From NCBI RefSeq assembly GCF_003334765.1, contig NZ_QOWT01000002.1: a stretch of 64,000 nucleotides of DNA; one strand, given 5' to 3'. Source of the DNA: Escherichia coli (GTDB taxonomy: Bacteria > Pseudomonadota > Gammaproteobacteria > Enterobacterales > Enterobacteriaceae). Under the pieces are notes generated by a model. It had not been told where the DNA came from, did not search any database, and saw only the letters and a program-made list of their open reading frames with translations. Positions 42,606-42,683 of this stretch are shown here, in pieces. Position 1 is the stretch's first letter. The number at the start of each line of letters is the position of its first letter. The translations under genes were made by a program, and so were the position numbers.

Positions 42606-42639
42606 GCGGACCTCTCCCTGTTAAAAGCCTCACATTATA

Positions 42640-42670
42640 CGGGGTACTACAAAAAAAATGCAGTACCCCG
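42640..42670 (-). terminator. hairpin terminator downstream of elaB
   Basis: cggggtact-acaaaaaaaatgc-agtaccccg; on the minus strand the loop region is T-rich. Confidence 0.6.
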
Positions 42671-42683
42671 GTGTAGGGAGGTT

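Follow-up and report, generated by a model that had tools for sequence, protein, structure and literature searches.

The 31-bp palindrome between elaB and menF in Escherichia coli is probably a junction module : the bases at which the elaB transcription unit ends would also serve as core promoter for the men operon (menFDHBCE, the menaquinone or vitamin K2 operon). The minus-strand RNA of the palindrome forms a strong hairpin at the 3' end of elaB mRNA, and the element is a cis-negative site for the men operon because C>T changes in its 5' arm raise men operon mRNA. As DNA, the hairpin appears to overlie a weak promoter of the men operon whose -10 hexamer matches the consensus. The element is of an ordinary kind, compactly built and conserved across the core Enterobacteriaceae.

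The window analyzed is a 64,000-nt stretch of E. coli DNA; a 301-nt segment around the element is 100% identical to K-12 and was found in 5422 of 5426 complete E. coli genomes. The coordinates of the features are collected in Table 1. The region 42606..42683, to which the earlier note had drawn attention, is the exact 78-nt spacer from the elaB stop to the menF GTG. Read on the minus strand, the RNA of the spacer with its flanking codons is UAA-AACCUCCCUACAC-CGGGGUACUGCA-UUUUUUU-UGUAGUACCCCG-UAUAAU-GUGAGGCUUUUAACAGGGAGAGGUCCGC-GUG.

Table 1. Features at the elaB-menF junction, in window coordinates
Feature	Position	Strand	Remarks
elaA	43505..43044	minus	
elaB CDS	42684..42989	minus	101 aa; stop TAA 42686..42684; annotation-identical to MG1655 b2266
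elaB-menF spacer	42606..42683	minus	78 nt
menF CDS	41310..42605	minus	GTG start 42605..42603; 431 aa
CCUCCCU box, complementary to menF Shine-Dalgarno (SD)	42675..42681	minus	candidate anti-SD in read-through RNA
Hairpin 5' arm CGGGGUACUGCA	42659..42670	minus	GGGTACTG(C) part invariant or nearly so across genera
Hairpin loop U7	42652..42658	minus	T-run in -35/spacer region of putative menF promoter; 5' part of run conserved
Hairpin 3' arm UGUAGUACCCCG	42640..42651	minus	ACCCCG conserved; loop-proximal half variable
TATAAT, probable menF -10	42634..42639	minus	assigned from conservation
CTGCAT, best weak -35 candidate	42658..42663	minus	18-bp spacer; predicted from sequence; CTGC conserved
elaB mRNA 3' end in vivo	42636	minus	MG1655 2380674; Term-seq
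Suppressor site menF(-58)	42663	minus	C>T on coding strand; C63-G47 becomes U.G, CTGCAT becomes TTGCAT; two independent lines
Suppressor site menF(-55)	42660	minus	C>T on coding strand; C60-G50 becomes U.G; one line
Natural E. coli A>C in 3' arm	42648	minus	ST131, STEC299, PE144; U62-A48 pair lost
menF SD region AGGGAGAGG	42611..42619	minus	assigned from sequence and alignment

The hairpin with a 9-bp stem that the earlier note placed at 42640..42670 is correctly located, and its arms pair perfectly: the inverted repeat CGGGGTACT / AGTACCCCG (42670..42662 and 42648..42640) forms a perfect 9-bp stem, which in minus-strand RNA grows to 12 bp through G61.U49, C60-G50, and A59-U51 and encloses a loop of seven U residues. 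The hairpin begins 14 nt past the elaB TAA. Its calculated folding free energy is -21.9 kcal/mol (z = -6.7 for 39 nt or -5.3 for 43 nt), and none of 200 shuffled sequences folded as well; the plus-strand RNA of the palindrome is weaker (-16.9 kcal/mol) and contains an A.C mismatch. Only a handful of comparable perfect hairpins with a loop are present in the 64-kb window. The element is found at a median of one place per E. coli genome, with no second close copy in the window, and a dispersed palindrome of the REP/BIME class was therefore rejected. A search of 42300..43100 with the Rfam 15 covariance models gave no relevant match, the sole match being a chance miRNA elsewhere in the region (E = 4.6). 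When other RNA partners for the 5' arm were sought in 43060..42380, the best duplex had a free energy of -14.6 kcal/mol as compared with -22.9 kcal/mol for the duplex with its own 3' arm, and there was no sign of an antiterminator.

A "primary" 3' end of elaB at MG1655 2380674(-) was reported by Adams et al. in 2021 (PMC7815308, supplementary file 1), where the site is entered three times, the file covering three growth conditions; the signal is strong in the two of these entries that were examined. The offset from the window to MG1655 is +2338038, in agreement with the 61-nt context printed in that file, and 2380674 maps to window position 42636. The RNA ends in ...GUAGUACCCCGUAUA (also written ...CCCCGUAUA), 4 nt beyond the stem. 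Because the main Term-seq 3' end is in this position, the hairpin ends elaB transcripts, as the earlier note had thought probable. The tail, UAUAAUGU, has no two consecutive U residues, so that a U-tract 3' of the stem is absent, and the hairpin was not called in a scan for consensus terminators. Since there is no canonical U-tract, the 3' end could reflect either termination or trimming, and its closeness to the stem, at a distance of only 4 nt, is suggestive of trimming. The hairpin is thus an atypical, U-tract-less 3'-end stem-loop. It resembles the intrinsic (Rho-independent) terminators of enterobacteria in having a GC-based stem-loop soon after the stop codon, a 3' end just past the stem, and no Rho region listed nearby. 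It differs from them in its tail, in the short distance to the 3' end, in the location of the T-run within the loop rather than after the stem, and in a stem core that does not vary over about 15 genera, rather than one that drifts through compensatory changes.

The stable stem, the 3' end near its base, and the missing U-tail are also characteristics of 3'-terminal protective stem-loops. If the hairpin were a protective stem-loop only, polymerase would stop farther downstream, by the action of Rho or otherwise, and exonucleases would trim the transcript back. The sequestration of the menF SD in many genera (see below) would agree with this, as it would leave read-through menF RNA untranslated and open to Rho. 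However, the thresholded list from bicyclomycin-treated cells (Adams et al., supplementary file 2) has no Rho-termination region within 2380100-2380799, although such an absence falls short of proof; the elaB hairpin is single-copy and gene-specific rather than of the REP type, and the helix that would sequester the SD in E. coli is matched by 6-11% of control windows. We regard this explanation as unlikely, although it retains some weight.

Conservation was analyzed with 80 ElaB loci from species-representative genomes, 47 of which have menF directly downstream. The E. coli-type core is present in 35 of the 47 and, after addition of the sequence from the window and omission of Yokenella, which has an extra insertion, there are 33 distinct sequences. 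The genera with this core are Escherichia, Citrobacter, Salmonella, Enterobacter, Leclercia, Silvania, Lelliottia, Kosakonia, Phytobacter, Pluralibacter, Intestinirhabdus, Trabulsiella, Huaxiibacter, and Pseudenterobacter, which together with Yokenella make 15 named genera. In alignment A1 the common core is CTCCCT-aaac-GGGGTACTGC-loop-(GCAGT)ACCCCG-TATAAT-...-AGGGAGAGG-...-GTG. The two arms are not equally conserved. Column entropy in the 5' arm is 0-0.2 for GGGTACTG and 0.52 for the next C, whereas in the loop-proximal half of the 3' arm it is 0.6-1.9 and the bases are frequently unpaired; C60 is kept in 31 of the 33 sequences and is in a Watson-Crick pair in only 15. An invariant 5' arm opposite a drifting partner points to a constraint at the level of DNA and suggests that this arm may have a sequence-specific reader. 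In A1, 78.9% of the stem cells are paired, there are double changes in four loop-proximal or terminal pairs, and the covariation score is 0.109 as compared with 0.067 in shuffles (none of 500 was as high), a modest value because the core never varies. Among the non-Watson-Crick cells, 33 are G.U and 11 are A.C, an excess that would fit selection on the minus-strand RNA.

Two alleles make up 98.8% of 5423 E. coli records: the K-12 type is present in exact form in 4063 and the 42648 A>C type in 1294 (24%). The A48C allele has an unchanged 5' arm and a calculated free energy of -17.6 kcal/mol, and is as weak as the hairpins of the suppressor mutants described below. In Yokenella regensburgei (locus L061, approximately 3375-3395) the insertion is an extra perfect palindrome, GAACCTGCCTCAGGCAGGTTC, located in the menF 5' UTR between the -10 and the SD, and it stretches the distance from -10 to start codon to 51 nt. 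A separate observation concerns the GTDB "E. coli" representative (L001) and Escherichia sp. E1V33 (L002), in which ElaB is 100% identical to that of the window and MenF approximately 90% identical, so that these adjacent genes diverge very unevenly.

The earlier note had also pointed out a TATAAT on the minus strand, within about 10 bp of the hairpin. The hexamer is present and perfect, but it is not set off by some 10 bp: it directly abuts the base of the stem. In the 33 distinct spacers the hexamer has five invariant positions out of six; its distance from GGTACT is 28 nt in 29 of them, and it is separated from the start codon by 25-29 nt. Where this hairpin is absent, as in Atlantibacter, Franconibacter, Cedecea, Acerihabitans, and other relatives, elaB is followed by a canonical GC stem with a U-run, yet the sequence ..CC(A/C)CG-TATAAT is retained 29-32 nt before the menF start. 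The retention of TATAAT near the start codon would fit a -10 element followed by a short 5' UTR; being invariant, and persisting in taxa whose terminator is a different one, the hexamer is very probably the menF -10, and transcription would then start at about 42627. The best -35 register, CTGCAT with an 18-bp spacer, matches TTGACA at two of six positions, and for this reason no minus-strand promoter was called in the spacer by a consensus promoter scan. Fusions of PmenFDHBCE to lux are active in Salmonella and Enterobacter (E. cloacae), the limits of the cloned fragment being unstated, and a text search of the literature gave no useful menF TSS, SELEX, or ChIP-exo result. We infer the assignment of the menF promoter to this site on good support, short of demonstration. 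Promoters for sigma-32, sigma-E, and sigma-54 and marbox, TrpR, and RcnR sites were rejected, as their -35 parts or spacings do not fit when judged only by eye against the consensus sequences.

The arrangement is related to back-to-back terminator-promoter junctions, in which an upstream terminator is followed at once by the promoter of the next unit on the same strand. Atlantibacter, Franconibacter, and Cedecea have such an arrangement, with the U-run of the canonical terminator approximately 15 nt upstream of the same TATAAT. In E. coli, in contrast, the two would be superimposed and not adjacent, with stem and loop corresponding to positions -41 to -13 of the promoter, and a polymerase that has completed elaB would come to a stop at the menF -10.

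Mutations in the element have been described in three independently evolved suppressor lines of an entC deletion, each with a G>A change, which is at menF(-58) in two lines and at menF(-55) in the third (PMC5892946). These changes map to the plus-strand G at 42663 and 42660, corresponding to C63 and C60 of the 5' arm. As compared with the entC-deletion parent, log2 increases in the suppressor lines are 1.8-2.7 for menF mRNA and 1.7-2.45 for menD, menH, menB, and menE mRNA (PMC5892946), so that men operon mRNA is approximately 3- to 6.5-fold higher. These effects support the suggestion of the earlier note that the hairpin may shape menF promoter activity. The authors of that study refer to the site as the "menF promoter" and as "a predicted translation attenuation site", citing RegulonDB.

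The hairpins of the suppressors are predicted to be intact but weaker, with free energies of -19.6 and -17.0 kcal/mol (drops of 2.3 and 4.9 kcal/mol). The -58 change generates TTGCAT, a classic -35 up-change. The -55 change moves no -35 register toward consensus, and the creation of a new promoter therefore does not explain both suppressors and was rejected. Template switching at a quasi-palindrome was also rejected as the source of the mutations, as they break perfect pairs and do not correct an imperfect one. Leaving aside the terminal pair and the ACCCCG block, which is conserved, C63 and C60 are the sole C residues of the stem, and on the non-template strand both mutations are C>T; this would explain the narrow mutational target. 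Neither suppressor allele, on a K-12-type spacer, is present among the 5423 E. coli records. We put action of the suppressors at the DNA level, through a -35 region that is improved or altered or through contact with a protein, at a little less than an even chance; increased read-through from elaB is a substantial but lesser possibility, and action through something else is rather unlikely. Read-through is favored by the pairing of both bases in E. coli, by the rise in mRNA of the whole operon, by the strong elaB 3'-end signal, and by the narrow C>T target. The invariance of the 5' arm, the equally weak A48C allele, the absence of the suppressor alleles from natural sequences, and the TTGCAT generated by the -58 change argue that the stability of the stem is not the whole story of repression.

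Read-through would be the only source of men operon transcription if the hairpin were a plain terminator with no promoter, the TATAAT being incidental, the operon being fed from elaB, and the mutations allowing polymerase to leak through. The paired state of the mutated bases with the accompanying losses of stability, the strong 3' end, and the restriction of the changes to the only available C residues are all consistent with a plain terminator. It would leave unexplained, however, a TATAAT that is invariant and keeps its distance from the start codon even where the terminator sequence is different, and a quarter of E. coli records have an equally weakened stem. It is the least probable of the explanations considered here.

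A constraint on the DNA could also arise if the palindrome GGGGTACTGC-N-GCAGTACCCC were an operator that places a repressor (SdiA in Enterobacter, or another factor) at menF -41 to -13, in which case the suppressors would destroy one half-site. The arms are conserved as sequence and their spacing is fixed, the suppressors strike invariant or nearly invariant bases, and the inverted repeat TACTG...CAGTA over the core promoter is similar to operators of the LexA/LuxR type (lux box). There are sdiA-dependent reporter effects in Salmonella and Enterobacter; in E. cloacae, whose spacer (L064, L067) carries the same palindrome (GTGGGTACTGCTATTTATCGTCAGTACCCCG), the PmenFDHBCE reporter shows a 105-fold, AHL-independent, sdiA-dependent repression. 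In E. coli, however, the reporter is not regulated by SdiA, no SdiA site has been defined, and binding is only putative. LexA and lux-type boxes have the spacing CTG-N10-CAG, whereas E. coli and most genera have CTG-N11-(C/T)AG, which is one bp too long, and a LexA or lux box was rejected; no LexA data were found. The asymmetric conservation, with an invariant 5' arm and a free distal half of the 3' arm, is unlike that of a symmetric dimer site, and the preponderance of G.U over A.C fits an RNA reading. All three suppressor lines are mutated in cis and none in trans, which is unexpected for a dispensable repressor. A dedicated repressor is disfavored because of the lack of trans hits, the asymmetry, and the N11 spacing, and an operator of this kind seems improbable.

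Upstream of the hairpin, the CTCCCT sequence is nearly invariant in alignment A1. In most genera the minimum free energy fold pairs the CUCCCU box with AGGGAG of the menF SD, with the hairpin nested inside, and the flanks of the two elements change together: AUCCCCUCCC:GGGAGGGGAU in Phytobacter, GAACCUCCC:GGGAGGUUC in Trabulsiella, and ACCCUCCCU:AGGGAGGGU in Salmonella. Matched anti-SD:SD duplexes have a mean free energy of -16.3 kcal/mol as compared with -14.4 kcal/mol for mismatched duplexes, and none of 20000 permutations was as good, in a test that is uncorrected for phylogeny. When duplexes are compared with control windows of their own genome, roughly two-thirds of the sequences have z values of -2.3 to -4.6, including those of Enterobacter, Leclercia, Silvania, Phytobacter, Kosakonia, Salmonella, Trabulsiella, Lelliottia, and others, whereas in Escherichia and Citrobacter the pairing is unexceptional (z approximately -1). 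In E. coli the duplex has a free energy of -11.5 kcal/mol, a value reached by 11% of control windows, and the duplex with wider flanks has one of -21.2 kcal/mol, which 5.7% of them reach. The stretch of 15-35 nt that separates the stop codon from the CUCCCU box is missing in E. coli.

In Escherichia only, the region of the elaB stop codon, GUUAAAACCUC (42678-42688), pairs with GAGGCUUUUAAC (42620-42631) at the start of the menF 5' UTR, and the last elaB codons contribute a CACGC that pairs with GCGUG, in which the menF start codon is included. Translational coupling of elaB and menF is possible, since a ribosome completing elaB would melt both pairings; statistically, however, the duplex does not stand out, as 5.7% of controls equal it.

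These features are shared with SD-sequestering leaders, which have a C-rich box complementary to the SD and, as here, flanks that co-change between genera; the database flag quoted in PMC5892946 is likewise that of an attenuator. The element might accordingly act mainly in translation, with the hairpin clamping the CUCCCU:SD helix in transcripts started upstream and blocking synthesis of MenF. The nested folds, the better energies of matched duplexes, and the z values of many genera are what such an attenuator would produce. On the other hand, the anti-SD is upstream of the likely promoter, and menF's own mRNA would lack it if the TATAAT is the promoter. In addition, the suppressors lift the mRNA of the whole operon and do not affect translation only, the duplex is weak in E. 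coli and unexceptional in Citrobacter, and no ligand, leader peptide, or alternative fold was identified. We therefore doubt that attenuation is the main function. If the TATAAT is the promoter, the anti-SD:SD pairing can affect only read-through RNA and would be a fail-safe that keeps this RNA untranslated.

The junction module that we favor would operate as follows. Minus-strand RNA would fold into the GC-based stem-loop behind RNA polymerase, and elaB transcripts end 4 nt downstream, either through termination with a poor U-tract or because the RNA is trimmed from its 3' end as far as the stem. In the DNA, the 3' arm (ACCCCG) adjoins the perfect TATAAT of the probable -10, and the 5' arm with the T-run of the loop would occupy approximately -41 to -28 and offer only the poor -35 CTGCAT. 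In combination these properties would keep transcription of the men operon low and largely uncoupled from that of the strongly expressed elaB, and single 5'-arm C>T changes derepress the operon. In many related genera the SD in read-through RNA would also be paired to the CUCCCU box just upstream of the hairpin, an effect that would be weak in E. coli. The missing U-tract, the lack of a promoter call, the misfit of the -55 change, the predicted persistence of the suppressor hairpins, and the modest covariation count against this explanation.

A more specific proposal, which we advance only tentatively, is that the palindrome is a dual-code element, acting as the 3'-end hairpin of elaB in RNA and as a sequence-specific site at menF -41 to -28 in DNA. 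The reader of the DNA might be RNA polymerase itself or a pleiotropic or other protein, such as SdiA in Enterobacter. If this were true, the invariant 5' arm would set the expression of the menaquinone pathway and, with polymerases stopping on the menF -10 as they complete elaB, the output of the men operon would be inversely coupled to the RpoS- and CsrA-controlled transcription of elaB. Published work on CsrA concerns the 5' leader of elaB or MenF-GFP levels, and not the elaB-menF spacer.

The element fixes the boundary between the elaB and men operon transcription units, and the stem-loop would help to keep the men operon low in a design that is unusually compact, the terminator stem doubling as a promoter spacer. 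The same few bases are the point that evolution used to raise isochorismate synthase when entC was missing, and those of the 5' arm are an obvious handle for engineering the flux of menaquinone or isochorismate. For annotation, a strong conserved hairpin with no U-tract can mark a major mRNA 3' end, and terminator predictors miss such structures. The Term-seq 3' end, the database prediction of an attenuator, and the site of the suppressor mutations are already public; the exact geometry of the overlap and the asymmetric, sequence-level conservation are absent from the published accounts that we found, and are modestly interesting rather than categorically new.

Two further observations were made elsewhere in the window. 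The gap between menF and menD (41220-41310) is approximately 88 nt in MG1655, although the genes are described as one operon, and in a mechanical list of open reading frames a long TTG-extended menD frame spans this gap. The longest true hairpin of the window, with perfect 15-bp arms and a 4-nt loop, is at 45903-45936, just past the elaD ORF (44675..45886, plus strand), and is probably the elaD terminator.
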